A DNA stretch of 64,000 nt from a virus (IMGVR_UViG_3300034126_000020:160001-224000); one strand, 5' to 3'; shown: positions 27,242 through 53,415, counted from the first letter of the stretch. Numbers and translations are program-made. Notes: generated from the sequence alone by a model not told the origin.

Positions 27242-29461
27242 TCAACAGATCACGTAGTTCTTACCAGGCATCTTGAAGGTCTTGCGTTGCTGAACCGTGT
27301 TGAAGTTGATTGGACGGTCGATCTCCAATGCACGACCCGGACCGAAGTTCCGGTTGGCAATGTTGAGCTTCTCACGGCTGCTTTCCCTGATCTGGTCAAG
27401 GGACATCGTGCCTTCCATTTCAAACTCGTCGGTAATTTGCAACAACAGCAATTCCAGACGGTGTTGCAGTTTCATCCGTTCGAACGTATTACGCTCTTGA
27501 CCGATGCGCTCACCCAATTGAGTGACTTCATCGCGGACTGCCTGCTGTTGGTCATAACGACGTTGTTCTTCCCACGAGAGTTTGTGCTCGGCTTCGTAGA
27601 TACGACGCTTCACTTCACTCAGGGTAATGCCGTAGTGCTCAAGGTTACGGCCATAGGTCAGGAACCAATGGCAGAGCAACCAGCTGATAACGTGGTCATC
27701 GTGGCCCGAAGCATCGTGGTCGATTCGACCATTACGTTCTACGAGGCGAGACAACTCACTCTGGAGTTTAGCGTCGCGTACCACCGCACCGGTCTTCTTG
27801 GCTGCTTCTTGCAGCACAGGACCGTAGATGATTTCGCGCAACTGGGAATTGGTGGGGAAGCCGAAGTACTTCCGGTAGGACCGGTAGTTGTCTCGGTCGC
27901 CGATGTATTCATGGTACCGCTTACGGTCTTCAGGCGACGAGTCCTTGGCATCCACGAGTGTCGAGTAGATACGTTTGGCCGGGTCAATCTTGAACGTAGG
28001 CATGGTGAGGAGCAAGGTGTCGAGGATACCGATCCAGGTAGACTTGGATTCAGGCACCATCGTCAGTTTAGGGAACCGGACCAAGATCTTACCCACCCAC
28101 ATGGCAAAGGCCGTGAGGTTGGAGTCGTTGACTGTCCAAGCACCTACAACTTCAAGTGTACTGTTGTCTACAATGACCCCAGTGATGTTGTCTCGACCCA
28201 CGGCGTTGGAGGTATCCATGCCCATGGTGAGTTCGCGGTTACGAATGCCTTGTTCCACTTCCCATTCCGGGATGTACCACCGGATGGAATAGTTCTCCTG
28301 CTTGTCGATCTCCAAGTACAGCGGCTTAGTGACGCTGGCATGGATCTTACGCAGGGTGTCCTTGGACAATGGGTTACGGGCGTTACCCGAGGTCCATTCG
28401 TTCAAGTAATCTCGACGGACGTTGTCACCGGTCTGACGGGATTCAGCGATCTTCTGACGCAGCCAAGCATCGGTCTTACCGAGTTGCTTGTGGTTGAAGG
28501 TACCGTTGATAAGGATCGCGTCCTTGTTACGGCATTGCTTACGCACCACGTCGTACAGGTGTTCGCTGCTGTCGCAATCGTAGAAGTGATCGTTCCACTC
28601 TGCGCCGCCGGTCATCAGGTCGTAAGCGTAAGCGCCTTCGTCCGTATCCAGTTCGCCAGCAGTAGTGGTGAAGATGTTACCGTACGGCAGGCCGTTACGT
28701 GCAGCTTCTTCACGAGCCGCACCACCACCCGCCAGCATAACGCCGAGGGAGATGTGTACGTTCTTCAGGAACGCGATTTCGTCCGTGTGGGAGTGTGGGG
28801 TGGTCAGACCACGACCCAGGTTACGTGCCGCTTCCTCGTCCTTCTGAGGAATGTACACCACCATGCGGTTGCCCTGAGACATGTTGGTGAATTCTTTCTG
28901 GTTGTCCGTGTCCTTCTTGACAATGTTGACCAGATACTTCGGCAGCAAGCCCCGCAGCTTCTTGAGACGGGCGATGTGTTCTTTAAACAAGTCACCCTTG
29001 GTGAACAAGTTAGAACGGGAGTTCCGTGCCCCGAACATCTGGTACCATACCGAGATGCCGTCGGAGTTCAACGACTTACCGGTCTGACGAATCTGCACCA
29101 GGAAGTAGTCGATGTGGTTCAGGAAGCTCCACCACAGTGAGATGTTACCTCGGTTAGCCTGAAGGACAACCGGCGTATCACCAGCGGCAGGTGGTACACG
29201 CATCACTTCACGAATGAAGTACCACGGGTTGAAGGTGCACTCAATTTTGATCTTGAGTTTCATCTCCTCGGTCAGGAACGGGTCGTAAGGATCGACGCCC
29301 TGAAGGTCAGGCTGCATCAAAGCCAGCATGAACAAGTGGTTCTGTACGCCCATGTGTTTCAACAGGGACGAGAACTCGAGGAATGACGTGTTGGTCGTTT
29401 GGGTATCCCAGATAGCGGTAGGATATCGGTCCCAGTCGGGTTTAAAGAGGATCGTTTCCAT
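27242..29461 (-). CDS. terL: Terminase large subunit (739 aa)
   Basis: Walker A RQTGKS, Walker B HSHTDE, RNase H-like nuclease GMDTS ... HDDHV; AAGGA SD before ATG 29461. Confidence 0.93.
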   Translation of the reverse strand: METILFKPDWDRYPTAIWDTQTTNTSFLEFSSLLKHMGVQNHLFMLALMQPDLQGVDPYDPFLTEEMKLKIKIECTFNPWYFIREVMRVPPAAGDTPVVLQANRGNISLWWSFLNHIDYFLVQIRQTGKSLNSDGISVWYQMFGARNSRSNLFTKGDLFKEHIARLKKLRGLLPKYLVNIVKKDTDNQKEFTNMSQGNRMVVYIPQKDEEAARNLGRGLTTPHSHTDEIAFLKNVHISLGVMLAGGGAAREEAARNGLPYGNIFTTTAGELDTDEGAYAYDLMTGGAEWNDHFYDCDSSEHLYDVVRKQCRNKDAILINGTFNHKQLGKTDAWLRQKIAESRQTGDNVRRDYLNEWTSGNARNPLSKDTLRKIHASVTKPLYLEIDKQENYSIRWYIPEWEVEQGIRNRELTMGMDTSNAVGRDNITGVIVDNSTLEVVGAWTVNDSNLTAFAMWVGKILVRFPKLTMVPESKSTWIGILDTLLLTMPTFKIDPAKRIYSTLVDAKDSSPEDRKRYHEYIGDRDNYRSYRKYFGFPTNSQLREIIYGPVLQEAAKKTGAVVRDAKLQSELSRLVERNGRIDHDASGHDDHVISWLLCHWFLTYGRNLEHYGITLSEVKRRIYEAEHKLSWEEQRRYDQQQAVRDEVTQLGERIGQERNTFERMKLQHRLELLLLQITDEFEMEGTMSLDQIRESSREKLNIANRNFGPGRALEIDRPINFNTVQQRKTFKMPGKNYVIC

Positions 29462-29533
29462 GACTGTTCCTTGACAGGACAACATACGGAACACAGGACT
29501 GCCGGGGATCACCCCAGCAGCCCCATGCACCAA

Positions 29534-31210
29534 TCAGTTGCTTTGCTCGACGGCCAAGCCAGTCACACCCAACTGAAGCTGGGCGTTTGCGGTCTCCCGA
29601 ACCCATCGGATGTAGATGGTTTCGCCGACTTTCACGTCGTTGAGGATCGGGAATTCTTGATTCCACTGAGTCACTGCGAATGGGTACTCACGCGTCTTCG
29701 TTTGGATAACGAAGTGCGTAGGTTCAAGCGCGCTGACTTCACTGGTGTCATCGAACAAGTGGTTGAGTGGGTAGTAGACCTTGTTGAGCCAACCGTCCAG
29801 ATCTGTAGCCCCCGCTTTGAGATCCAGGTACGACAGGTTGACGTTGACGAAGCGGTTCTTGGCAATGACGCCTGCACCGAAGAACTTCTCCTGCGTCGGG
29901 TCGCACTTGACCTGCCACTTGTCGCCTTTCTCAGAACCGGGCTTCATCAAAGCAAACTCGGCAGATTGGACGAACCGGTGTTCAGGGAAGATCGGGTCGA
30001 TGTTGCTGAGCAACACACCGAACTTCAGGCGCTGACGGGACACGAAGTCCTTACCGTCGAAGGCCACTTCGTTGTCTGGGGTCTCCACAACCGAACGCGG
30101 TACACGGTAGTACTGATCACGGTCGATATTGAAGAGCCAGAAATCGAGGTCATAACGCGACGCTGGATCGTTCCAGGTCGGGAATGCGTACAGACGCACA
30201 CTATAAGCGTTGTCTGCCGCGATGGCCTTGATTGTGAATGGCTCGGTAATGAACCCGTTTTCCGTGATCCCGTGCTCCAGAGAGTACTCATCGTCGGACA
30301 ACTTGTACGCCAGAGTCAGCTTCGCAGCGTAGGTCTGGATCGTTGGGGAGTACCAGCGCAGGCCGTGCAACGACATCTTGCCAGTGCCGTCCAGTACCAC
30401 CGGGATCTCGAGTTCTTCACCGGTGTTGTACCGCACTACGCCGGTCATGACCACAGTCCTGAGGTCGACGTTGATTGGCACTACCAGTTGGCTCGGGTCC
30501 GCTTCGGACAGGTAAGGACTACGCAGGCCCACAGAACGGATCTGCTTACGACCAGCCGCCGTACGACGCACAAGGGTGGTGTTCTCCACCAACATGGTCG
30601 ACTTGCTCAGGGCGTTACCCGCAGCGTTGTACAGCACCACGGTGACCGGTTCGCCGTTGGACAGCTTACGGTTCGTGTTACCGGCCTTCGGTGCCCAGAT
30701 CGCCCAGTTGTTGATGTCATCGTGGCCGACATGTTCCAACCCAACGTTCTCGTTGATGTATTCGCCAGACGGAGAATAAGACGCAGAGATCAAGATGCCG
30801 TTGTCGGTCAAGTCCGTGCCGAGGAAGACCTTGTAGTGGTCCGCATCAGAACGGTACAGGTGGAGACGACCGTCGATCTGCATCGAGTACGGCATTTGAC
30901 GGGTGTCGATGTACACGCGCCATGTTTCCGATTGCGAACCGGTACCGACTCCCAGCAATTGGTCGACGATCACGTTGTTCTCGGTCACCATCGGCAGCTT
31001 CCACGGAATGAACGTGCACTTACCAGTGGTGATGTCGATTGTGGTCACCAGATACCAACCTGTGGTCAGGTCGATGATCAGGTCATCCACGTTGGGGCAG
31101 TGCAGACCAGTGCCTGGCTTGCCCGTGAAGATCTGTTTCATGAACCAGATTCGGGGTTCACGCGTCAGATCGACAATACCTACCTGAGGAATGTCTTCAA
31201 CAGTACTCAT
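29534..31210 (-). CDS. Virion structural protein (phiKZ gp26-like, baseplate region)
   Basis: Beta-rich 558-aa protein immediately upstream of terL; conserved synteny. Confidence 0.7.
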   Translation of the reverse strand: MSTVEDIPQVGIVDLTREPRIWFMKQIFTGKPGTGLHCPNVDDLIIDLTTGWYLVTTIDITTGKCTFIPWKLPMVTENNVIVDQLLGVGTGSQSETWRVYIDTRQMPYSMQIDGRLHLYRSDADHYKVFLGTDLTDNGILISASYSPSGEYINENVGLEHVGHDDINNWAIWAPKAGNTNRKLSNGEPVTVVLYNAAGNALSKSTMLVENTTLVRRTAAGRKQIRSVGLRSPYLSEADPSQLVVPINVDLRTVVMTGVVRYNTGEELEIPVVLDGTGKMSLHGLRWYSPTIQTYAAKLTLAYKLSDDEYSLEHGITENGFITEPFTIKAIAADNAYSVRLYAFPTWNDPASRYDLDFWLFNIDRDQYYRVPRSVVETPDNEVAFDGKDFVSRQRLKFGVLLSNIDPIFPEHRFVQSAEFALMKPGSEKGDKWQVKCDPTQEKFFGAGVIAKNRFVNVNLSYLDLKAGATDLDGWLNKVYYPLNHLFDDTSEVSALEPTHFVIQTKTREYPFAVTQWNQEFPILNDVKVGETIYIRWVRETANAQLQLGVTGLAVEQSN

Positions 31211-31248
31211 CTAATCATCACGGGGACCGAGTCCCCGTGCTCCTGAGG

Positions 31249-33819
31249 TTATTCGATTGGCAGGTGGTCGATGACGATGGCATTGGTGATGTCGATCTTG
31301 TCGTTCAGCATCACCTTGATCGCCCGAGCCAGGAAGTTGTACTGGTAGATCGGGAGGCGGAAGACTTCGTTGCGTTCATGGGCTTCAATGCTCACGTACC
31401 GCTCGTCGAATCCCTTGGTCGTTGGCTCGTATTTGAGCAGCCAGTTATACCCCTCACACCACTTGCGCACATCCACGTCGCTGTAGTACTCAGTCAGCGG
31501 GATCTGGTCAAAGTACCCACTGATCAAGTCGTGCATCAGCTTGCCCACGAAGGGACTGTACACGGAGTGACGGTGCGGGATCAGGTTGACCTCTTGTGGA
31601 GGGACCTCACCAGCCCGGATGGTCATGTAGTCTTCGATCTGCTTGTCAGTGGCTTCCGCCACCGCTCGCATGTCGTACGCATCCTGATACGTCACGCCCC
31701 GCAAAGGGATCAACGGCTCAGTGACCTGATACGGTGCACCGTTACGCACGTTCTTCAGAACCACTTCCGGGCGGTCTTCTGCCCAGCTCAGTTCATCACG
31801 GCTCCAGATACGACCATCGGCAATGACGCGGATCACCTTGTCATCACGCAGGTTCCAACGGTTGTTACGGCTGAGCAGACCGTTCTCCACGAACCCGTAC
31901 TCTGCCTCTTTGACCCGAGACATGTCTGGGTTGCAGAAGCCGGTGTGACGGATGGTGATGACGTTCTTCGTCCCCACTTGGTTGCGGTACTGCCGGTTGA
32001 TGATCATGATCTCTTTATCGACCATGAACCAATCGAGTTTCTCGATCAGCGGGAAACCATTCAACCAGATCTCCAACAACCCAGCTGGGATCTCCACCAA
32101 GCCTTCGTAAAGAATGCCGTCAATGCGGATCTCTTTCACGTTCAGGCTGAACCGCAGCAATGCATCCGCGTAGTCCAACTCAAGGTTGTACGTCAGGAAC
32201 GAGTCATCGAACTTGACCGCGGTGTAGAACATCTGCGGATTGACCTTCCACACCACTTCCCCTTCAATGAGGTCGTAGTGCGTGCCTTTGTCCGTGACGT
32301 CGAACCAATCACCCGTAGGCAATGCGTTCTCAATCGGGCAGACGTAGCAGCGATAGGTCAGGCCTGCCTTGACCTTGGCATTCTTCCCGTAAACGGTCGT
32401 CATCACGTCGGTACCACGGCCCACGATGCCCTCAATGTAGCGGCATGCTTCAGCACGAGGCACGTAGTTCTGCACGTTCTGGTTCAAGTACCAGCCCAAC
32501 AGGCGACCACTGCCATCGTACTCGTAGACGGTGCTCTCACCACGCAGCCCGAACGGCAACTCCGTCCAAGCCTTGGGAGACGCGATCTTCTGCGGCGTGT
32601 CAGCCACGATCCGAGTGATGGTGTTGTAGCCATAAGCGGCTTCGACCATCTCACGGGTGATGCCACCCGACGGGCTGCGCATCAAGGCGGTGTACTGAGA
32701 CTTCTCCAGCTCCTCGATACGCCACACATCCACCACAGCCTCAGTACCGAGCACTGCGCCCAGCCAATCAGCGTCTTCGAGCTTGTACAGCTCTTTGATG
32801 TGATGTGCTTCGCTCATCAGCGTACGATCCAGCCCAGAACGGCGAATGAACATCTGCACCGTGATCTGGTTGTTGACTGCCCAGTTGGGATTCTGGTTCA
32901 GAAAGCGGTCCACTTGAGCCGTTGGAATGGAATAGTCGCGATGGGTGACCATGCGCAACGAATCCTCGACGTTCTTGTGGTAGTACACGCCCTTGTGAAT
33001 GTACGGGGTCTTCTTGTACATCAGGAAGATGTCTTGATCGTCCCGGTACCAGATGAGGTCGTCGTTGTTGACCTTTGGATGAAGCAAGTACTTCTGCTTC
33101 TGATCCATTTCCGACAGGAACACCGGAAGGTCTTTGACTTCGAACTCTTCGACGCGGATCACCGAGCTATCACGCACGATCTCAACAAGGTCACCCGTTT
33201 TCATGGTGCTCACGTTGAGTTCATTGACCCGCCAGCCATTCACGAAGGCAAAGCAGTAACCCGTCTTCAGGCGCATGTCCCGCAACTTGAACGTCAAGGC
33301 GTTGATCTGCGAACTGGAGGCCGGTTGAGCGTAGTGGTACTCAATGCCCGCGTACTGATCAATCGTGTCGTCACGATCGAAGAAGGCGTTGCTGTAGAAC
33401 CGGACGTAGACGTTCTCTTGACCAAAGTCACCGATGGTGAGCAGGTTCTCGATGGCGATCACGAGGTTGCCGTCGTCCGTATAAAGGAAGTACGCCAAAC
33501 GCCGAGGGATCATCAGACCCCGTTCGGTGTAGATGTCGATCAGCAGGATGGAGTCCACCATCTGGCTGCTGACCGCAGTCCACGTGTTTCGCTTCAGGTC
33601 AAGGTCCAGATTGCTCAGGGCGATGTTACCGAATTGGAACACATGGTAGCGTTCTTTTACAGTCGGGAGATTGAAGCGCGTCCATAGCACTTCAATACTT
33701 CCCCGAGCCCCGACTTTAGGGCTGATGCGTGCAGGACGAAGGATGTGCTGCCGGTCCTGCTCCGGTGCACACCACACGTTCTTGTACGCATGGTTGATCA
33801 GAAAATCATCGGAGGTCAT
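31249..33819 (-). CDS. Virion structural protein (phiKZ gp27-like, 856 aa)
   Basis: Starts with the family-like LINHAYKNVWCAPEQDRQ; synteny with terminase and sheath. Confidence 0.72.
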   Translation of the reverse strand: MTSDDFLINHAYKNVWCAPEQDRQHILRPARISPKVGARGSIEVLWTRFNLPTVKERYHVFQFGNIALSNLDLDLKRNTWTAVSSQMVDSILLIDIYTERGLMIPRRLAYFLYTDDGNLVIAIENLLTIGDFGQENVYVRFYSNAFFDRDDTIDQYAGIEYHYAQPASSSQINALTFKLRDMRLKTGYCFAFVNGWRVNELNVSTMKTGDLVEIVRDSSVIRVEEFEVKDLPVFLSEMDQKQKYLLHPKVNNDDLIWYRDDQDIFLMYKKTPYIHKGVYYHKNVEDSLRMVTHRDYSIPTAQVDRFLNQNPNWAVNNQITVQMFIRRSGLDRTLMSEAHHIKELYKLEDADWLGAVLGTEAVVDVWRIEELEKSQYTALMRSPSGGITREMVEAAYGYNTITRIVADTPQKIASPKAWTELPFGLRGESTVYEYDGSGRLLGWYLNQNVQNYVPRAEACRYIEGIVGRGTDVMTTVYGKNAKVKAGLTYRCYVCPIENALPTGDWFDVTDKGTHYDLIEGEVVWKVNPQMFYTAVKFDDSFLTYNLELDYADALLRFSLNVKEIRIDGILYEGLVEIPAGLLEIWLNGFPLIEKLDWFMVDKEIMIINRQYRNQVGTKNVITIRHTGFCNPDMSRVKEAEYGFVENGLLSRNNRWNLRDDKVIRVIADGRIWSRDELSWAEDRPEVVLKNVRNGAPYQVTEPLIPLRGVTYQDAYDMRAVAEATDKQIEDYMTIRAGEVPPQEVNLIPHRHSVYSPFVGKLMHDLISGYFDQIPLTEYYSDVDVRKWCEGYNWLLKYEPTTKGFDERYVSIEAHERNEVFRLPIYQYNFLARAIKVMLNDKIDITNAIVIDHLPIE

Positions 33820-33840: not shown

Positions 33841-35151
33841 TCAGTCATTACCTGCGATGATCTCATCCAGGTACTTGCTGAAGGTGGTCTTCATTGGCGT
33901 TTCGCCAGACGGGCTCACTTCGTAGAGGTTGCCCTTGGAGTCGGCTGCAATGAACACCGAATCCACGCCCACGCTTTCGATCACGTACAGGCCTTTGGTC
34001 TTGAAGTACTTGCTGATCTCTTTGGTGCCAGCGATCACGTCGAGGTGACCAGCCTTCTGGCCCAAACCGTAGATCTCGTGACTACCCACCGACAACACGC
34101 CGAACTTCTTCAAGAAGGCCACGTAGTCAGGAGCAAACTTCACGCCCAGTTCTTTCTGTGCCAGATCCACTTCAGCCTGAGAAGCTGGAGCGTTGGATTC
34201 GAACGTTTCCATCGACACGGTCATCGGACGGATCTTGCCCGCCAAGGTTTCCATGGACTTCACGAAACCAGACAGGTTCGTTTCGTTCAAACCGATCTTC
34301 TGCACGAGGCTGCCGAGGCTGGTCTTGCGCCACACTTTCGCGTTAGCAGCAGACTCGATCAACGACAGGAACACCGGTGGGTATTCCAAGGCTACGCCGC
34401 AGATGGCTTCCTTGCCCCAACCGAACCACGAACGACCCAGGGACATGGTAATGAAACCCACGTTGACCTGAGTGATGCGGGTGTTGGAGGAGAAGTGAGC
34501 ACGCAGCACAGACACGAAGTCTTCCAGCAACGCCATGTACGGCGAGGTTTCAACGACGTTCTGAATGATCGCAATCGGGTGACGGGTCCAGCGCTGAAGC
34601 AATGCACAAGCGGTCCCTTTACCATAAGTCGACAGTGCTTCGTCTGCACCATAAAACTGATGGATGTAAAAAAGTCCCGTAATGATCTGAACCTCGCGTT
34701 GTGCTACTTCGTCGACGCCGAGCTTACCTGTGATGAGCCCAGCGACCCAAGCGATGTACACTTGGGGAGCCAAATCGCCCACACGCAGGAAGTCATCCCG
34801 CACAGAGCGGTCTTTAACCCACAACGCAGTCAACTCTCCCATGCGGACTACAAAGTCAGCTTGGGTTTGGTTAGCGACGATGAAGCCTGTAGCAGAGCGC
34901 TGTTCCTTGCGCATGAACGAACGACCGTCAGCAAACACGACGCCGTTTTCGTTCAGCTTACGACTGCCGTATTCCTCGGAAGTAATCGGCAGGACAAAGG
35001 CGTCAATCTTCTCGACAGCCGGTGTAACCAGAACAACAGCGGGACCGTCGGCGACCAACCCACCCATGGCTTTTGCCACGGCAAGTTCGCTGATAATTTC
35101 GCCAGTTCTGTGTTGGCGAAGTACGGTGGAGTTCCAGGGGCTGGTGATCAT
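33841..35151 (-). CDS. Virion protein (phiKZ gp28-like) fused to a C-terminal SMI1/KNR4 (SUKH) domain
   Basis: The N-terminal ~315 aa are syntenic with gp28. The C-terminal PASQAEVDLAQKELGVKFAPDYVAFLKKFG is the SUKH signature. AGAGGT SD before ATG 35151. Confidence 0.75.
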   Translation of the reverse strand: MITSPWNSTVLRQHRTGEIISELAVAKAMGGLVADGPAVVLVTPAVEKIDAFVLPITSEEYGSRKLNENGVVFADGRSFMRKEQRSATGFIVANQTQADFVVRMGELTALWVKDRSVRDDFLRVGDLAPQVYIAWVAGLITGKLGVDEVAQREVQIITGLFYIHQFYGADEALSTYGKGTACALLQRWTRHPIAIIQNVVETSPYMALLEDFVSVLRAHFSSNTRITQVNVGFITMSLGRSWFGWGKEAICGVALEYPPVFLSLIESAANAKVWRKTSLGSLVQKIGLNETNLSGFVKSMETLAGKIRPMTVSMETFESNAPASQAEVDLAQKELGVKFAPDYVAFLKKFGVLSVGSHEIYGLGQKAGHLDVIAGTKEISKYFKTKGLYVIESVGVDSVFIAADSKGNLYEVSPSGETPMKTTFSKYLDEIIAGND

Positions 35152-35317
35152 CTTCGACCTCTTCTGTCGCAACCAGTAAAAAATAACAAAATAGTATGTG
35201 GTGATGGTATCGAATACATCGAGTACCGAATCCTACGGTTTTTAAATGTAGGCAAGGGCCATACCATTCGTAACTTCACGCGCGAAGTTGATATTCTTTC
35301 CCATGGGAGACATGAAC

Positions 35318-43275: not shown

Positions 43276-44523
43276 TCAGCTGCGGGAGTTCTTGCGTGCG
43301 TCTTTGGCCACACGCTCAGCCGCGAGGTTGATCTCACGGATGATGAAGTACAGCACGGTCACTGCGCCGTTCAGGCACTGCCAGCCGAGACGGGAGGTCT
43401 CGATGATAGCGCGTTGTACGCCCTGCGCATCGCCCGAACCCTGCACGTCTTTCTTCATGCGCACGGTCAGTGCTTTGTGCTCGGTCCACTTCTTCGGCGA
43501 GTTGGAACGCATTTGCTGGGTAGCGGTTGCAGCAGCCAGGAACTTGTCCAGCGCACCGGTCAGCTCTTCTACTTTGATGACCCGCTTACGAGAGCCCTCA
43601 ACCACCATCACGACGCCCGGATCGAAGATGAAGTCCACGAGGGTGCTCTTCGGCCAGCTCACGTTCAGGGAGCCGCCAGTGGACCAGTTCTTCAGGCCAT
43701 CAGGCGCGCCCTTGATGTCGAACTTCTTCACGTTCAGGCGACGGTTGCCCATGGTGAAGGTGTGGTCGAAGCGACGGTACACTTCGTCGATCTTCGGGTT
43801 GATGCCGTTGATCGCACTGATCGCCTTGTCAGCAGCGTCCTGGTCTTTCCAGTCAGCACGCATGGCAATGTCAGCCGCTTTCTTGGCGTCGTCAACCAGT
43901 TGGGTACCGAACTTGATCAGGTCGCCAATGATGCTGGCAGTTTCACCGGCAGCCTTTGGAATGTTGTCAGGAACGGAACCGTCAACACGGAAGGCGTAAA
44001 CCAGCGAACGACCGAACGCAGGAGTGATGGCCAGCTTGGCATGAGCCGAAGCGTAGTTCTTCAGGACAGAGACGTTGTCCTTCAGGTTTGGCACTTCACG
44101 GTTCAGCAAACCGATCTTGTCCCACAGGTCAGTCATGGAGTAGCTTTCCATGGCGACAGTGATCTGACCTTCCAGTGACGCGTTGATGCCACGGATCTGA
44201 GCAGCCAGTTCTTTGGCCTTAGGGCCCTGCTCAACGGACTCCAGAGACGCGGTGTTCACGGTGATGCCGTAACGGCCCATGACTGCCGAGACCAGTGCTG
44301 CTGCACTGTCCAGGGACTCCTGACTGACCAGAGTATCGCCATCAAGGACGACAGCGGTCTCTTCCAGGGTGTTCATGTCCTGCTCGAGTTCCAGACGGTC
44401 CTCGACGTAGCTGTCGGCCGACACTGGGTTCGACTCGTCGCGAAGCTGGTCCAGCAGCTCTTCGCTATTATCAGCACTTTCCTGCGACACTTTCAGCGCG
44501 GCAGTAAGAACGGAGTTTTTCAT
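43276..44523 (-). CDS. Head (inner/ejection) protein with acidic propeptide (415 aa)
   Basis: Acidic N-terminal ~130 aa with S/A-x-E sites (SQE, SLE, AME); located next to the prohead protease. Confidence 0.7.
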   Translation of the reverse strand: MKNSVLTAALKVSQESADNSEELLDQLRDESNPVSADSYVEDRLELEQDMNTLEETAVVLDGDTLVSQESLDSAAALVSAVMGRYGITVNTASLESVEQGPKAKELAAQIRGINASLEGQITVAMESYSMTDLWDKIGLLNREVPNLKDNVSVLKNYASAHAKLAITPAFGRSLVYAFRVDGSVPDNIPKAAGETASIIGDLIKFGTQLVDDAKKAADIAMRADWKDQDAADKAISAINGINPKIDEVYRRFDHTFTMGNRRLNVKKFDIKGAPDGLKNWSTGGSLNVSWPKSTLVDFIFDPGVVMVVEGSRKRVIKVEELTGALDKFLAAATATQQMRSNSPKKWTEHKALTVRMKKDVQGSGDAQGVQRAIIETSRLGWQCLNGAVTVLYFIIREINLAAERVAKDARKNSRS

Positions 44524-45825: not shown

Positions 45826-46623
45826 TTACCACCTCCAGGCGCTAGGAACGTAAACCCGGATTGGGCGTTCGATCTCAGCAATGAGGGACATCATGTTGTT
45901 GCCGGATTCAAAGCCCACGCCTGCACCTACGCCGACTGGATTGGCCAGTGCTTCTTTACGCAGTGCATCAGCGTAGAAGACGGTTTCCAGTTCTGCTTCT
46001 GGCATGTGGATCAGACCACCTGCTTCAGGAGCCGATTCCAGCGAAGGAGTCGCGTACTTCGAAGAGTTACGAATGCCCGGTTCGTTCACGGTGTCCCAGG
46101 TTACGATCTTCTTCAAGAACTTGGTCTTGACGCCACCGACGATCTTGTCTTCGGTGAAGGACCGGATGGAGAAGCAGACGTTCTCGTCACGGTTCTCCAG
46201 TTGACGGTCAAACCAGGCACTCTCTTTACCCGATGCACGAACTTCGCCGAGCACCATGGTGATAGCGCGGCCACGTTCGTCCTTGGCAGGATCGAGCATC
46301 AGGCGGCGCATGTGGAAGCAGACGTTCGGTTCGAAGATGTCGTTCACACGACCAAACCAAGCGAGCTGGTTCATGCCAGTCTGGAAGCGCGGGTGACCGC
46401 ACTCGCCACGCAGGGCATTGTTCTGGTTGATCATCCGCATCAGGCCGGCAGAGCCTTCCATCAGTTGACGACCTTCACGCTCATTGTAGAGCCAGCCAGC
46501 TTCGTTGAATGCACCAAGTGCACCCAGACGAACTTCGTAGTAACCGTTGTCGAGCTTCTTCAGGTCCCCAACCTTATTGATGCCCTTCAACACGTTACAC
46601 TGATAAATGATTCTTTGGTCCAT
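45826..46623 (-). CDS. Prohead protease (phiKZ gp175-like)
   Basis: Catalytic His in GECGHP and Ser in CFSIRS, WDTVNEPG; C-terminal SLE autocleavage-type site. Confidence 0.9.
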   Translation of the reverse strand: MDQRIIYQCNVLKGINKVGDLKKLDNGYYEVRLGALGAFNEAGWLYNEREGRQLMEGSAGLMRMINQNNALRGECGHPRFQTGMNQLAWFGRVNDIFEPNVCFHMRRLMLDPAKDERGRAITMVLGEVRASGKESAWFDRQLENRDENVCFSIRSFTEDKIVGGVKTKFLKKIVTWDTVNEPGIRNSSKYATPSLESAPEAGGLIHMPEAELETVFYADALRKEALANPVGVGAGVGFESGNNMMSLIAEIERPIRVYVPSAWRW

Positions 46624-49026: not shown

Positions 49027-52000
49027 CTACTTGGTATCGTTGCTCATCCACATCTCTGCTGCCTTCTCGCCGATGGCGCGTTGGACAGAGATAGACATGC
49101 CGATCAGCAGGGCCGAACTTACGATACGGTCCATGACCGACTTAGCGCCGAAGACGGCATTGATCCGTGAACCGGATTTGGTTTCGTTGACACCGCTCAA
49201 GCGATGACCAACTACTGTCTTCATCTGGTTGCAGAACACTGCCTTGTCGCCGACACCCATGCCTTCACGGTGAGTGATGTAGACTTTGATTGCAACGTGA
49301 TCGAGTTCCAGACCGTTCCCGTCAATGCGAAGGGATTGGTCGACCTGACCTGTGACAACCGGTTTGCCGAGACGTTTGGACACCTTACGACGTTGTTTGT
49401 CGTGGGCAGTGACCAGCTCCAGTAGCGAGTCCGACATGTCGTCCGGGTCACCATGGTAGAACACCTCGATCTTCGAGACTTCGCCAACAGCACCTGCAAG
49501 AGGTGCAGCCGAGCCCATCTTGCGAAGGGTTTCAAGGTCTTCGTCCGAGAACAGTCCAGCTTCCGCCGTTACAGCATCTTCAATCGTGCATAGAATACTC
49601 GAGATGTCCGTGTGGTCGCCCTGTTTAACCAGGTTACGGATGTGCTGCCCGAATTGCACGACGATGGTCTTGACCTTTGTTACTTCCGACCCAAGCTGCC
49701 CGGCCAACCAATCATCGATTGCCGAGGAGTCTTCCAGTGTGTAGCCTGCTTCCATCAGAGCCGTACGTGCGATTACCCCAGCCTTCCACTGCACTTGACG
49801 TGGTTCGAACCGGCTCGGCTTAAAGAAGCCCGAGTTGAATTTCAAGATGTCGCCTGGCTTGACTTTGTCACCCAACTGGAAGGTGGTGTCTTGCTTCTGC
49901 GGGTAGACCGAACCGGCGGAGATGCCGTACTGGGTGGTCAGGTCCAGATGCTCGAAGGTACCGTCATCGTACGCCACGACCATGTGAGTGTCGGTGCGTT
50001 CAATCACTTCACCCGACTTGGTAGCCGGGACAGCAAAGATCTCATCAACACGGTGGGCCAACACGTGGTCATAGCCGGTGGAGATTGGAGACTCACGATA
50101 ACCGTCCGAAGAGATTACGTGCGATTGCTGGATACCAATGAAGTTCACCCGCTTCGGGTCGTCTCGGTCAGCGAATGGACTGATCAGGGCGGAGGTCGAG
50201 ACGATGTTAGCTGCCCCATCCGTTTCCTTATCGTAAGCCCGCACCGTACCGCGCACACTGGTGATGTTCGCGTTAGGAGACATGTAGGTAATAACCGCCA
50301 CGTCGCCGGAGTCTACGGTACTTTCCGAGATGAAGCCAATGTCGGATTCCTTGTACAGACGCGCCTCAGCAGTCATCGACCGGCTACTGCGGCCACCACG
50401 GCCACCGTAAGTGATGATCTCTTTCTGCTTGAGGTTTTGGATCGGGTTGATGTCATCGACAATGGCCGAAGCCGGGTCTTGTACGATGTTAGTCCAGACC
50501 TCGTGCGGCTTCATGGTCACTTGCGACGTAGCACCAGCACCACGCGAGTTGTAGACCCGGATGGACCGGACCAGCTCTGCGTAGATAGCGCCTGGGATAC
50601 GCTCGTAACCTTTCGCACGTTCTTGACCATCAACCAACCCATCAGCCCCTTCAACCTTCGTTGGGACGTAACGGGTGACCAGCATTTCTACAGCCCGAGT
50701 CAACAGCGGAATGAACTCGGTCGGTTCCTTCATCCACTCAAGGACGCCTTTGGTGATCGGGTCGACCCACATGGCATTCATGAGGTCCAGTTCACGCAAG
50801 TAGCGCAAGCCGATGCCGTTGGCTTCCAGAATGTTGAAGTACACATCCTTGTCGTTGAAGCTGTGACGGGAGAACTGACGGACGGACTTGTGGTAATGGA
50901 GGAAGCCAGCAAAGATCATGCTGTTCTTCACATCACTCTTTTCCATGACCAGCGTTTCATCGAGGAACTTGATGGCGTACTCATCGTCCGACATCTGTAC
51001 ACGGGTACCCAACGGCACTGCCCGGTAACGAGCCCCTGTCAGCTCCAGCAGGCCTTTCAGACCGAGCAGGTACGCCAGAGCGATACCGACCGGCATGACC
51101 TTACCGAAGATGCTGATCTCAGCCATGGAGACCGGTGACTTGTCCTTGTTCAAACCAAGGATGTCTTCGATCTGACCCAGTTCGCTGACCTGGTTGTTCT
51201 TGCTGTCGACCAAGTAGAACGCGCTTTCACGGTCCACCATGATGTAACGCTGGCCACGACGACCAACCACCACCATACCCTTGTGTTCTGCTTCAAGGGT
51301 CTCGACCAACTTCATGTCGAACAGGCGGCTACGCTCACGGTTCTTGTAGTCGAACCAGTAATGACCGTTCGCCTCAAAGCTCATCACCCGGCTACCGATC
51401 ACGGTGTACGCAGTCGGCAGGTCCAGCGAGTAGTCTGCCACGTTGGCAATCTTCACGTTGGTGATGGTGGTGTCACCTGGGTCCATGCCTTTAGCGATGA
51501 TCTGCTTGGCAATCCAGTTGTCGTAGTTGAACACAGCACGTTGCGAACGCTCAACGAAGAGCTTGCTGTAGTACGACGTCAGGGCGACACGAATGGCGTT
51601 GACCTTGCGGATCGGTACATCGGACTTCTGAGTCCGCAGGCGATACTTCTGGCCGTTGGAGGTGTACGAACCACGCTTGTCGACCACTGGCACCCGGAAG
51701 GAGATAGTGGACGGCTTGCCGGTGACCGGAGTCAACTGGACCTTGTGGATCTCGTAGTGACTGACCGCATCTTGCACGGTCTCGATCTCGTACCCAGTTA
51801 CAGCCACACCCGCTTTCTGCACGGACATAACGGCGTTCAGGATGTCGGACTTCATCACCTTTTCGATGTACTGACTGTCCATCTTCTCGACGGTCGACTG
51901 TAGCATCGATTTGTCACGCACCGATTCCATTTCTGGATACGGCTCAGATTCCTGAAGAACAAGGTCTTCCTGCTTGATGTCCAAGGACGTCTCAACAGTC

Positions 52001-53415
52001 TTCGACTTGTCCCACGGGTCTGGCATCGTCTTGTAGGATTCTGCCAGCCGTTGCATCCGGCGATACTGCGCTGCCGTCAGGATGTCCTTCTCCACCAACT
52101 CGTCGATCTTGCTTTGGATCGAACTGGTCAGGGTGTGTTCAGTTGCACCGTCAGCCACGATCTGCGAGACTTGAGCCACAGGCTCTGCACCGGTCTCAAT
52201 GACCAGTTCACCGTCTTCGTCTTCCATGATAGCGTCGGAGGTAGACACTGCTGGCTCGTCCAAAGACTCGGCCAGTTCTTCTTCCTCTTCTACCAGCATC
52301 TCGTCAGCACCCAATTCCTTACGGGCCTGTGCTTCTTGCTGCTTGTCTTCTTCGGCTTCAGCGGCATCGTCAGCGGCTGTGACCTGTTGCTGCGCTTCAG
52401 CCTCTTGAGGCGTGATCACCGCGACCGGGTTGGTCTGATCAATGATCTTGGTCAGCAACTTCAGGAATCGCACCTGTATGATCTTAGGATCAAGACCTTG
52501 CCCAGCTTCCATCGACACGCCCATGTCTTCGTCAAGGGTTTCATCCCCTGCGTTTTCCATGGAGACGTAACGCTGGTAAGTGTCTTCGAAGTCGAAGTCT
52601 TCACTCACCGGTTGTTCGACGAACGATTCCATCGACACGCCAACGCCTTGCTTACGCCAGCCGTTGAGCAGGCCGAGGTTCAGGCTGATCCAACCAGCGT
52701 CCTTACGGATAACCAGTTCGATCTCACTCAGGCGTGACTCATCCAGCTTGGCCATCGGTGCACGTTGACGGTTCTCACCCAACCAGATAAACAGGTCGAG
52801 CAAGTCCAGACGTTCACGCGTGTTGAACACCTGCATCAGCGTCGGAGTCATGCCCCGTTCAGCTTTACGCAGGTCAGACAACGCTGGCAGGGTCTGAGGC
52901 AGATCAAACAGGATGATGTGATGCCGTTCGTGTTCAGTCTTCAACTGATTGAACCGATCCCACTGAGTGGTCCTGAGGTTGCGCCAGTTCCACCAGCGAC
53001 TCAAGGCCGACCGTTGATACTTGTACATCTGCGCGACCATGGCGTAGTTGACTACGAGCATGTTCAGGGGTTCTTTTGCCGCTGCTTCATAATCCCGCAT
53101 TGGGCGGATGGTCATGTTCTCGCGACGGTACTGCTGCATCATTGGAGCGAGTTGCTTGAACGTGGAACGAGGGTTACCCTCCTTCGATAGCAGGTCAGGG
53201 ACATGGTCAATGAAGATCAGTCGCTGAGCCGCTTGAATGATCTGGCTGCCAGCAGCCGGACCCAGTTCGGTTTCATTCATCGGCATGTAGTGGACGTTGG
53301 CACCACGAGGCAAACCGAATCGTGCGATTGGTCTTACTCGTGGGTTCTCCAACTCTCCTAGCCTACGGATGCCGAACAGTTTCATGTAGCGGTCATACAG
53401 AAACATTACGGCCAT
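49027..53415 (-). CDS. Virion RNA polymerase beta subunit (phiKZ gp178-like, 1462 aa)
   Basis: RNAP beta motifs (GGRGGRS, FADRDDPKRVNFIGIQQ, GDKAVFCNQMK), N-terminal extension, synteny. Confidence 0.9.
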   Translation of the reverse strand: MAVMFLYDRYMKLFGIRRLGELENPRVRPIARFGLPRGANVHYMPMNETELGPAAGSQIIQAAQRLIFIDHVPDLLSKEGNPRSTFKQLAPMMQQYRRENMTIRPMRDYEAAAKEPLNMLVVNYAMVAQMYKYQRSALSRWWNWRNLRTTQWDRFNQLKTEHERHHIILFDLPQTLPALSDLRKAERGMTPTLMQVFNTRERLDLLDLFIWLGENRQRAPMAKLDESRLSEIELVIRKDAGWISLNLGLLNGWRKQGVGVSMESFVEQPVSEDFDFEDTYQRYVSMENAGDETLDEDMGVSMEAGQGLDPKIIQVRFLKLLTKIIDQTNPVAVITPQEAEAQQQVTAADDAAEAEEDKQQEAQARKELGADEMLVEEEEELAESLDEPAVSTSDAIMEDEDGELVIETGAEPVAQVSQIVADGATEHTLTSSIQSKIDELVEKDILTAAQYRRMQRLAESYKTMPDPWDKSKTVETSLDIKQEDLVLQESEPYPEMESVRDKSMLQSTVEKMDSQYIEKVMKSDILNAVMSVQKAGVAVTGYEIETVQDAVSHYEIHKVQLTPVTGKPSTISFRVPVVDKRGSYTSNGQKYRLRTQKSDVPIRKVNAIRVALTSYYSKLFVERSQRAVFNYDNWIAKQIIAKGMDPGDTTITNVKIANVADYSLDLPTAYTVIGSRVMSFEANGHYWFDYKNRERSRLFDMKLVETLEAEHKGMVVVGRRGQRYIMVDRESAFYLVDSKNNQVSELGQIEDILGLNKDKSPVSMAEISIFGKVMPVGIALAYLLGLKGLLELTGARYRAVPLGTRVQMSDDEYAIKFLDETLVMEKSDVKNSMIFAGFLHYHKSVRQFSRHSFNDKDVYFNILEANGIGLRYLRELDLMNAMWVDPITKGVLEWMKEPTEFIPLLTRAVEMLVTRYVPTKVEGADGLVDGQERAKGYERIPGAIYAELVRSIRVYNSRGAGATSQVTMKPHEVWTNIVQDPASAIVDDINPIQNLKQKEIITYGGRGGRSSRSMTAEARLYKESDIGFISESTVDSGDVAVITYMSPNANITSVRGTVRAYDKETDGAANIVSTSALISPFADRDDPKRVNFIGIQQSHVISSDGYRESPISTGYDHVLAHRVDEIFAVPATKSGEVIERTDTHMVVAYDDGTFEHLDLTTQYGISAGSVYPQKQDTTFQLGDKVKPGDILKFNSGFFKPSRFEPRQVQWKAGVIARTALMEAGYTLEDSSAIDDWLAGQLGSEVTKVKTIVVQFGQHIRNLVKQGDHTDISSILCTIEDAVTAEAGLFSDEDLETLRKMGSAAPLAGAVGEVSKIEVFYHGDPDDMSDSLLELVTAHDKQRRKVSKRLGKPVVTGQVDQSLRIDGNGLELDHVAIKVYITHREGMGVGDKAVFCNQMKTVVGHRLSGVNETKSGSRINAVFGAKSVMDRIVSSALLIGMSISVQRAIGEKAAEMWMSNDTK

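Follow-up and report, generated by a model that had tools for sequence, protein, structure and literature searches.

Until its own genes are expressed, a phage can fight only with the proteins that its capsid delivers, and those known are enzymes, DNA-binding protectors and toxins. We describe here a gene that may encode a cargo of another kind. It lies on the minus strand of a 64,000-nucleotide stretch of viral DNA (IMGVR_UViG_3300034126_000020:160001-224000; "the window" in the following, with positions counted from its first letter), which belongs to a complete virus record of 276,810 bp with terminal repeats. The nearest isolate is Pseudomonas phage pPa_SNUABM_DT01, with a protein identity of approximately 62-68%. 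The encoded protein consists of a body of the type of gp28, the inner-capsid vertex-binding protein of phage phiKZ, followed by a short linker and a SUKH (SMI1/KNR4) domain.

The closest described systems are the jumbo phages phiKZ, 201phi2-1 and SPN3US, whose head proteins are processed by S80 proteases (gp175/gp245). These proteases cut after S/A-x-E, with Val favoured in position P4 and a small residue in position P1' (PMC10052503, PMC5694885). The phage described here shares with them the protease family, the kind of site and the capsid type (PhiKZ_MCP, phiKZ_IP). It differs in that the known substrates lose N-terminal propeptides, which are largely cleared, whereas here a foreign folded domain of the immunity type follows at the C-terminus of a complete structural protein. 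Moreover, gp28 is not described as processed in the literature searched.

Cargo freed by a head protease is also known from phage T4, whose internal proteins and Alt are loaded in the prohead, released by cleavage after Glu, stored together with the DNA and injected before gene expression. For example, IPI* of T4 is an injected anti-restriction protein. In T4, however, the address is a short N-terminal targeting peptide and separate genes are used, whereas here the address would be a whole vertex protein remaining in the shell and the cargo a C-terminal immunity domain (for Alt and Dar see PMC5512222; for the T4 capsid-targeting sequence see PMC5694885). Similar in another respect are the polyvalent proteins of phages and the toxins fused to MuF (Iyer et al., 2017; PMC5512222), for which capsid loading and release by the head protease have likewise been proposed. 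They combine an N-terminal head module with C-terminal domains of the conflict type that can be exchanged and presumably are injected, and multi-module versions exist, comparable to the gp28+SUKH+DUF6985 proteins described below. The present protein lacks both a MuF domain and a peptidase of its own, not more than three modules are found in its relatives, and the cargo is an inhibitor rather than a toxin or an enzyme.

The cargo itself belongs by sequence and fold to the same family as the SUKH immunity proteins of LHH-type HNH/EndoVII toxins (PMC3113570; YobK, 2prv). The difference is that in the phage, a jumbo phage of the lytic type, no toxin gene is adjacent, and that a virion protein carries the domain as a fusion, with a protease site preceding it. 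That a virus can co-opt SUKH as a counter-defence binder is known from the US22 family of herpesviruses (PMC3113570). The latter belongs, however, to another SUKH clade, and its loading mechanism and the domain of life of its hosts are unrelated. Some members of the US22 family travel in the tegument of the virion. Compared with protease-freed capsid cargo described previously, the differences are the inhibitor-type immunity domains, the use of a vertex protein or of gp89 as address with C-terminal or internal cargo, the S80 context and the dynamics of the cassette.

The author of a preliminary description of the locus was not aware of any account of such an arrangement. Indeed, within a limited set of literature, it is described neither in the founding SUKH paper nor in the polyvalent-protein paper, the 2021 jumbo-phage survey or the results of full-text searches. 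The polyvalent-protein paper (PMC5512222) and the survey do not mention SUKH, the searches that combined SUKH or KNR4 with jumbo phage, anti-defence or virion gave only unrelated or author-name matches, and DUF6985 was met nowhere in this set. The arrangement is, however, not unique to this phage: it is modular and is shared by a small metagenomic clade.

The open reading frame (ORF) of the fusion gene had been listed as 33841-35172 (-). Its actual start was set at the ATG at 35151, because this ATG has an AGAGG ribosome-binding site (RBS) and because all homologues start at this position (Table 1). The peptide quoted in the preliminary description was found letter for letter in the C-terminal part of this ORF, and both proposed domain identities were borne out by Pfam matches above the cut-offs. 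The body matches PhiKZ_VTX/gp28 (PF25614) over residues 8-310 (E 2e-66) and resembles gp28 in the phiKZ capsid (8y6v_D) both in sequence (E 3e-14) and in fold (target TM-score, TMt, 0.84; E 4e-13). The SUKH portion, the 3' third of the gene, matches SUKH_5 (PF14567) with E 3e-10 in the full protein and 2e-11 as the domain alone (40.6-44.1 bits versus a cut-off of 27), and SUKH_6 and SMI1_KNR4 also score above their own cut-offs. Beyond PhiKZ_VTX and SUKH, Pfam finds nothing in the fusion protein, which has none of the features of MuF and polyvalent proteins (head domain, own peptidase, many effectors). Nor does it begin with a T4-type targeting peptide, which is short and ends in L/I-x-E; a complete structural domain of 305 amino acids (aa) forms its N-terminus, and the cargo follows at the C-terminus.

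Sequence profiles of the SUKH domain retrieve 2icg at 1e-9 and 2prv at 1.5e-8. The AlphaFold2 (AF2) model of the full-length protein, with a predicted local distance difference test (pLDDT) score of 82, shows residues 1-305 as a helical body, 306-324 as a linker without structure and 325-433 as an alpha/beta domain. For the SUKH domain modelled with 70 homologues the pLDDT is 89.8, and the best Foldseek matches of this model are YobK/2prv (query TM-score, TMq, 0.82) and 2icg (0.84), then 3d5p and yeast Knr4, whereas US22-type proteins are matched only weakly in a fold search of BFVD. The predicted structure thus confirms that the C-terminal domain has the SUKH fold that had been proposed for it, and the proposal that a structural protein acts as its carrier is also supported.

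Table 1. Features of the fusion gene and of the prohead protease gene (positions are those of the window)
Feature	Position	Strand	Basis
Fusion gene, gp28-like vertex protein + SUKH, whole gene	33841..35151	-	ORF with ATG and AGAGG RBS; 436 aa + stop; identical database protein P0002
Carrier body, phiKZ gp28-type inner-capsid vertex-binding, residues 1-305	34237..35151	-	PF25614; PDB 8y6v_D
Disordered linker, 19 residues (306-324)	34180..34236	-	AF2 pLDDT <50 at 309-319, no secondary structure; fastest-evolving segment
SUKH_5 (SMI1/KNR4) domain, residues 325-433	33853..34179	-	Pfam, profile, AF2/Foldseek, dN/dS
First SME, residues 299-301	34249..34257	-	Within last body helix (290-305, AF2); P4 = Lys, off-consensus
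Second SME, residues 313-315, predicted S80 site V-S-M-E|T-F, cut after Glu315	34207..34215	-	Invariant S-x-E column; genome-wide SME context
Predicted released cargo, residues 316-436, 121 aa	33844..34206	-	Inferred from predicted cleavage site
Prohead protease gene, Peptidase_S80, phiKZ gp175 homologue	45826..46623	-	PF20034 E 9e-64; gp175 match E 3e-29

Between body and SUKH domain the preliminary description had noticed two SME motifs and had interpreted them as tandem prohead-protease sites. Both motifs are present, but only the second fits a site at the junction. The first lies in a conserved gp28 helix, has an off-consensus Lys in position P4 and is kept as SME-[ITV]-LAG in unfused orthologues of 311 aa, which end approximately 10 residues further on. 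It is therefore probably not a cleavage site specific for the fusion. The second SME stands within the disordered linker. When the junctions of 19 family members were aligned, 13 of which have any extension, S-x-E was found in one and the same column just before the cargo in all 13 extended homologues (as SME, SLE, SNE or SQE), while the remaining linker varies in length and sequence. Further module borders, namely the SUKH-to-DUF6985 junctions of three-module proteins and both flanks of the cassette in protein P0038 (see below), all bear S-x-E.

That SME is a preferred site in this phage is indicated by its proteome (303 proteins from a self-trained gene call of the 276.8-kb genome), which contains SME 34 times versus 9.9 times expected (3.5-fold; Poisson 1.5e-9); no other S-x-E tripeptide is strongly enriched. 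Position P4 is V, A or I in 21 of the 34 cases, P1' is S, G, A or T in 22 and P2' is L or F in 16, and 26 of the sites fall within the N-terminal 40% of their protein. Several SME each are found in the major capsid protein of the PhiKZ type (at 39, 54 and 138), in phiKZ_IP internal head proteins, in the beta subunit of the virion RNA polymerase and in a virion structural protein, and all of these belong to the substrate classes known for S80 proteases (PMC5694885, PMC10052503). In a linker of 19 residues, chance would give a strict match to the site consensus of this phage in approximately 0.3% of cases.

The presumed enzyme is encoded by the phage itself, 12 kb from the fusion gene, by the S80 gene listed in Table 1. 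Cleavage of the linker after Glu315 is thus well supported by inference, and we consider it likely, because a conserved consensus site lies in a disordered linker, an S80 gene is present and the chance expectation is low.

Several other sites of the S80 type were noted in the genome. Judged from the context of their SME motifs, the major capsid protein, three phiKZ_IP paralogues, the virion RNA polymerase beta (261, 285 and 301) and a virion protein of 1321 aa are candidate S80 substrates (window 43276-44523 and 49027-53415 are examples of such regions), and so is a 415-aa protein encoded next to the protease gene, with four S-x-E sites within residues 1-116. The protease contains P-S-L-E|S at residues 194-196 of 265 (window 46036-46044, -), a possible self-cleavage site. 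A cut there would remove a C-terminal piece of 69 residues, similar to the self-cleavage of SPN3US gp245 and phiKZ gp175. A 278-aa protein encoded outside the window (genome 231108-231944, +), with SME at 15, 27 and 216, was considered as the protease and rejected, as it matches no protease family; it belongs to phrog_4682, has relatives only in phage DT01 and in a Burkholderia jumbo phage, and may be another processed head protein.

How the SUKH extension is distributed bears directly on whether it is a structural part. Among the gp28 homologues of isolate phages none of 154 carries an extension, a tblastn search of 50,697 phage records with the SUKH domain gave no match, and in IMG/VR the fusion was found in only three further jumbo genomes. 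In the metagenomic homologues four states were distinguished: without cargo (309-335 aa), with SUKH (436-440 aa), with a DUF6985-like domain alone (454-456 aa), and with SUKH plus a DUF6985-like domain (569-604 aa). On a maximum-likelihood tree of 35 bodies the cargo state changes at least seven times and the SUKH state at least four times. Close relatives have lost the domain: one cluster at 90% identity contains members of 438 aa and of 321 aa, and the short forms end two residues past the junction site. In these the DNA after the stop codon still encodes the last approximately 33 SUKH residues in frame, which indicates a recent internal deletion, and the deleted lineage was found on contigs of 244-250 kb in several samples. 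The preliminary description had suggested a comparison of orthologues; its outcome is that most of them lack the extension, which is therefore not carried by all as an essential structural part.

The cassette is not only lost but also exchanged and moved. For example, the proteins P0030 and P0034 have bodies that are 98% identical and third domains that are approximately 93% identical, yet SUKH residues ~359-434 have been replaced. Conversely, between P0033 and P0010-12 the SUKH domains are 61-62% identical and the bodies only 42-45%, which indicates module transfer. P0038, a protein of a 247-kb compost phage, is a homologue of the abundant phiKZ head protein gp89 and contains the same cassette as well (78% identical), with the ELET-SME motif duplicated on both flanks; the cassette is inserted exactly where the gp89 copy of the present genome reads V-A-M-E|A. 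It should be noted that the identity of this second carrier rests on a tblastn match to PHIKZ089, since a sequence search against solved structures gave nothing useful. These comparisons show the SUKH cargo to be an accessory cassette that is gained, lost, swapped and moved.

A cassette of this kind could be without function, an immunity gene having been captured and accidentally joined to gp28, with the S-x-E at the junction a coincidence. Its rarity (in no isolate phage and few IMG/VR genomes) and the lineage that is visibly losing SUKH would be in line with such a neutral or decaying fusion. The ratio of nonsynonymous to synonymous substitution rates (dN/dS) is, however, 0.10-0.15 for SUKH, as constrained as the body (0.18-0.23) and lower than the linker (0.27-0.54), so that, as judged from substitution rates, SUKH is under purifying selection where it is kept. 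In addition, carriers with as little as 42% identity between their bodies have retained the fusion, the motif at the junction does not vary, and the cassette also serves in a second carrier, where the sites are duplicated. A functionless fusion is therefore highly improbable.

More serious is the possibility that SUKH, whether cleaved off or not, stays in the head as a binding module of the vertex complex, for a head protein or for DNA, and never acts in the host. Indeed, gp28 is a fixed part of the vertex-binding complex, such complexes vary between phages (gp65 of phage Goslar has an extra domain that fills the position of gp28), the alternative carrier gp89 stays in the head in phiKZ, and SUKH is a general protein-binding module, as the matches to Knr4 and FBXO3 illustrate. 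But most orthologues are without SUKH, some even within the same 90%-identity cluster, and the lineage with the recent deletion occurs in several samples. The same cassette is found in two unrelated carriers, a replaced patch separates phages that are 98% identical, and the nearest relatives are toxin immunity proteins. Because of the losses, the patch replacement, the two carriers and the immunity relatives a conflict module fits better than a structural part, and an assembly add-on is considered unlikely.

With regard to a conflict module that is carried in the virion, the location of the carrier is of importance. In phiKZ, gp28 sits at the vertices on the capsid's inner surface (PMC11297242), and the C-terminal domain would therefore be inside the capsid. 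We consider it very likely that the SUKH cargo resides there. In the phiKZ capsid, more than one fragment of the processed protein gp162 is seen (PMC11297242). Furthermore, phiKZ packages inner-body proteins with mNeonGreen at the C-terminus and ejects several of them (bioRxiv 10.1101/2022.09.17.508391). Ejection of SUKH at infection could well take place in the same way, although we stop just short of calling it probable.

What SUKH would bind is suggested by its relatives. An exhaustive search with the domain gave 453 of them, mostly stand-alone proteins of approximately 130 aa with 30-42% identity (a word-index search with the domain alone gave no match, which reflects the length and word limits of that method). 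The nearest stand-alone relatives are, in all six examples examined, encoded directly downstream of a protein that ends in an LHH domain, an HNH/EndoVII-type DNase toxin, and it is by association with such nuclease toxins that the SUKH family was defined (Zhang, Iyer and Aravind, 2011; PMC3113570). In bacterial fusions DUF6985 is combined with SUKH and Tli4_C immunity modules, and SUKH with PoNi; the present phage genome contains one SUKH and no DUF6985. The suggestion in the preliminary description that the domain neutralises a nuclease toxin of the host or a defence system gains support for its first part, because the six nearest relatives adjoin LHH DNase toxins; for the second part no matching defence effector was found with PADLOC. 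That the target is a nuclease toxin is, from these neighbourhoods, possible but somewhat doubtful. A polymorphic-toxin locus (L032:1-4414) that encodes a protein of more than 1200 aa ending in LHH, a SUKH-like protein of 252 aa, an orphan LHH tip of 81 aa and a SUKH protein of 137 aa could supply cognate toxin-immunity pairs for comparison with the phage domain.

SUKH proteins normally protect the producer of the cognate toxin (Zhang et al., 2011; PMC3113570), and phage head proteins fused to toxin domains are known in the form of MuF toxins and polyvalent proteins (PMC5512222). The domain might thus neutralise a toxin of the phage's own, packaged or produced late, either to protect the producing cell or to silence the toxin until ejection. 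There is, however, no cognate toxin gene beside the fusion gene, the neighbours of which are a DUF7193 gene and the tail sheath gene, conserved as flanks in all relatives, and the SUKH-less close relatives show no compensating change at the locus. Also, LHH, AHH, WHH and GH-E domains are absent from the complete 276.8-kb genome, which is a weak argument since only these four toxin families were searched for. Such self-immunity is regarded as quite improbable.

A different question is whether an ejected SUKH has to act on a toxin at all. The superfamily includes the non-immunity binders Syd, Knr4 and FBXO3, and proteins ejected by jumbo phages are sensed by host immunity, e.g., by Juk. The domain could therefore be an adaptor for host manipulation that binds a sensor of ejected proteins, a membrane factor or a translocon factor, comparable to Syd or to herpesvirus US22. 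This alternative also appears rather unlikely, because the specific subfamily is linked to LHH toxins in all six cases and because the second cargo, DUF6985, also travels with immunity modules.

We therefore favour, with modest confidence, the reading that a gp28-type carrier brings a SUKH cargo into the head, that the cargo is freed there by the prohead protease, and that it is most likely injected against an LHH-type DNase toxin or a related effector. The fusion protein, expressed late, would enter the prohead via its gp28 body, and the S80 protease would cut the disordered linker after Glu315 during head maturation. The gp28 body would stay at the capsid vertices, while the free SUKH piece would be trapped together with the DNA, in approximately 55 copies if the stoichiometry matches that in phiKZ. 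At infection it would leave through the tail with the DNA, as several inner-body proteins of phiKZ do, and would bind a DNase toxin of the LHH type (HNH), or a related effector, that comes from the host, from a neighbouring bacterium or from a competing element. The nuclease would thus be blocked before phage genes are expressed or protective compartments are built. The more general idea, that jumbo phages inject pre-made inhibitors of DNase toxins, with SUKH/DUF6985 cassettes bounded by prohead-protease sites in gp28 and gp89, in the manner of an "injected antitoxin" counter-defence, and that the exchange of the cassettes mirrors the dynamics of the toxins, should be taken as tentative.

Several points weigh against this reading. 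In SPN3US, 13 of the 14 mapped S80 cleavages strip N-terminal propeptides; the exception is the protease, from which a C-terminal piece is removed (PMC10052503). It would therefore be unusual for a structural protein to release a folded domain from its C-terminus. The gp28 homologue of Goslar was not seen in the Goslar capsid map, so the placement of gp28 may vary among lineages. Residence in the capsid does not imply ejection, as phiKZ gp89 and gp162 are retained in the head. PADLOC has no model that matches the tested LHH toxins or the fusion protein, which makes a link to anti-phage defence, rather than to interbacterial toxins, speculative, and no LHH, AHH, WHH or GH-E toxin is known for the host of the phage. 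Finally, cleavage, packaging and ejection in this uncultured phage are deduced from sequence.

SUKH domains in other phage proteins were also encountered. In a prophage (GCA_029782595.1, L024:7001-8719) a 572-aa protein with an N-terminal DUF7211 motif and two SUKH domains is encoded between a head-connector gene and the genes for terminase, portal and S78 protease-capsid proteins; this placement of SUKH in a phage head module may have arisen independently. A putative jumbo phage rich in AT (L023:7001-8275; P0048/P0196; also on contigs of 297-303 kb) encodes a protein of 424 aa with an N-terminal part of 300 aa and a C-terminal SUKH_5 domain, with A-T-E|S and I-T-E|S motifs at the junction. 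In BFVD, SUKH-like folds (probability 1.0, TMq 0.5-0.6) occur within viral proteins of very large size, among them one of 921 aa in the jumbo phage PBS1 and others of 1.3-1.5 kaa; a weaker match is the annotated RNA polymerase beta of Photobacterium phage PDCC-1. A SUKH-like propeptide in the virion RNA polymerase beta of the present phage was considered, and profile comparison gave no support for it. Within the window, the long frames 29399-31246 (+, 615 aa) and 31237-33687 (+, 816 aa) are antisense to real structural genes; they are base-composition artefacts and were rejected as genes by codon-usage scoring.

If the favoured reading is true, immunity proteins borrowed from interbacterial toxin systems would be a new class of capsid cargo, and there would be a new principle of loading, in which a permanent shell protein serves as the address and protease sites serve as universal docking points for cassettes. 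LHH-type HNH DNases would be a concrete and testable class of targets, for which natural plus and minus variants of the phages exist. For loading capsids of the phiKZ kind with foreign proteins, the gp28 C-terminus with its V-S-M-E site looks like a natural handle. With regard to nucleus-forming jumbo phages, the finding suggests that interbacterial toxins or toxin-like defence effectors exert real selection on them in the unprotected phase of entry.

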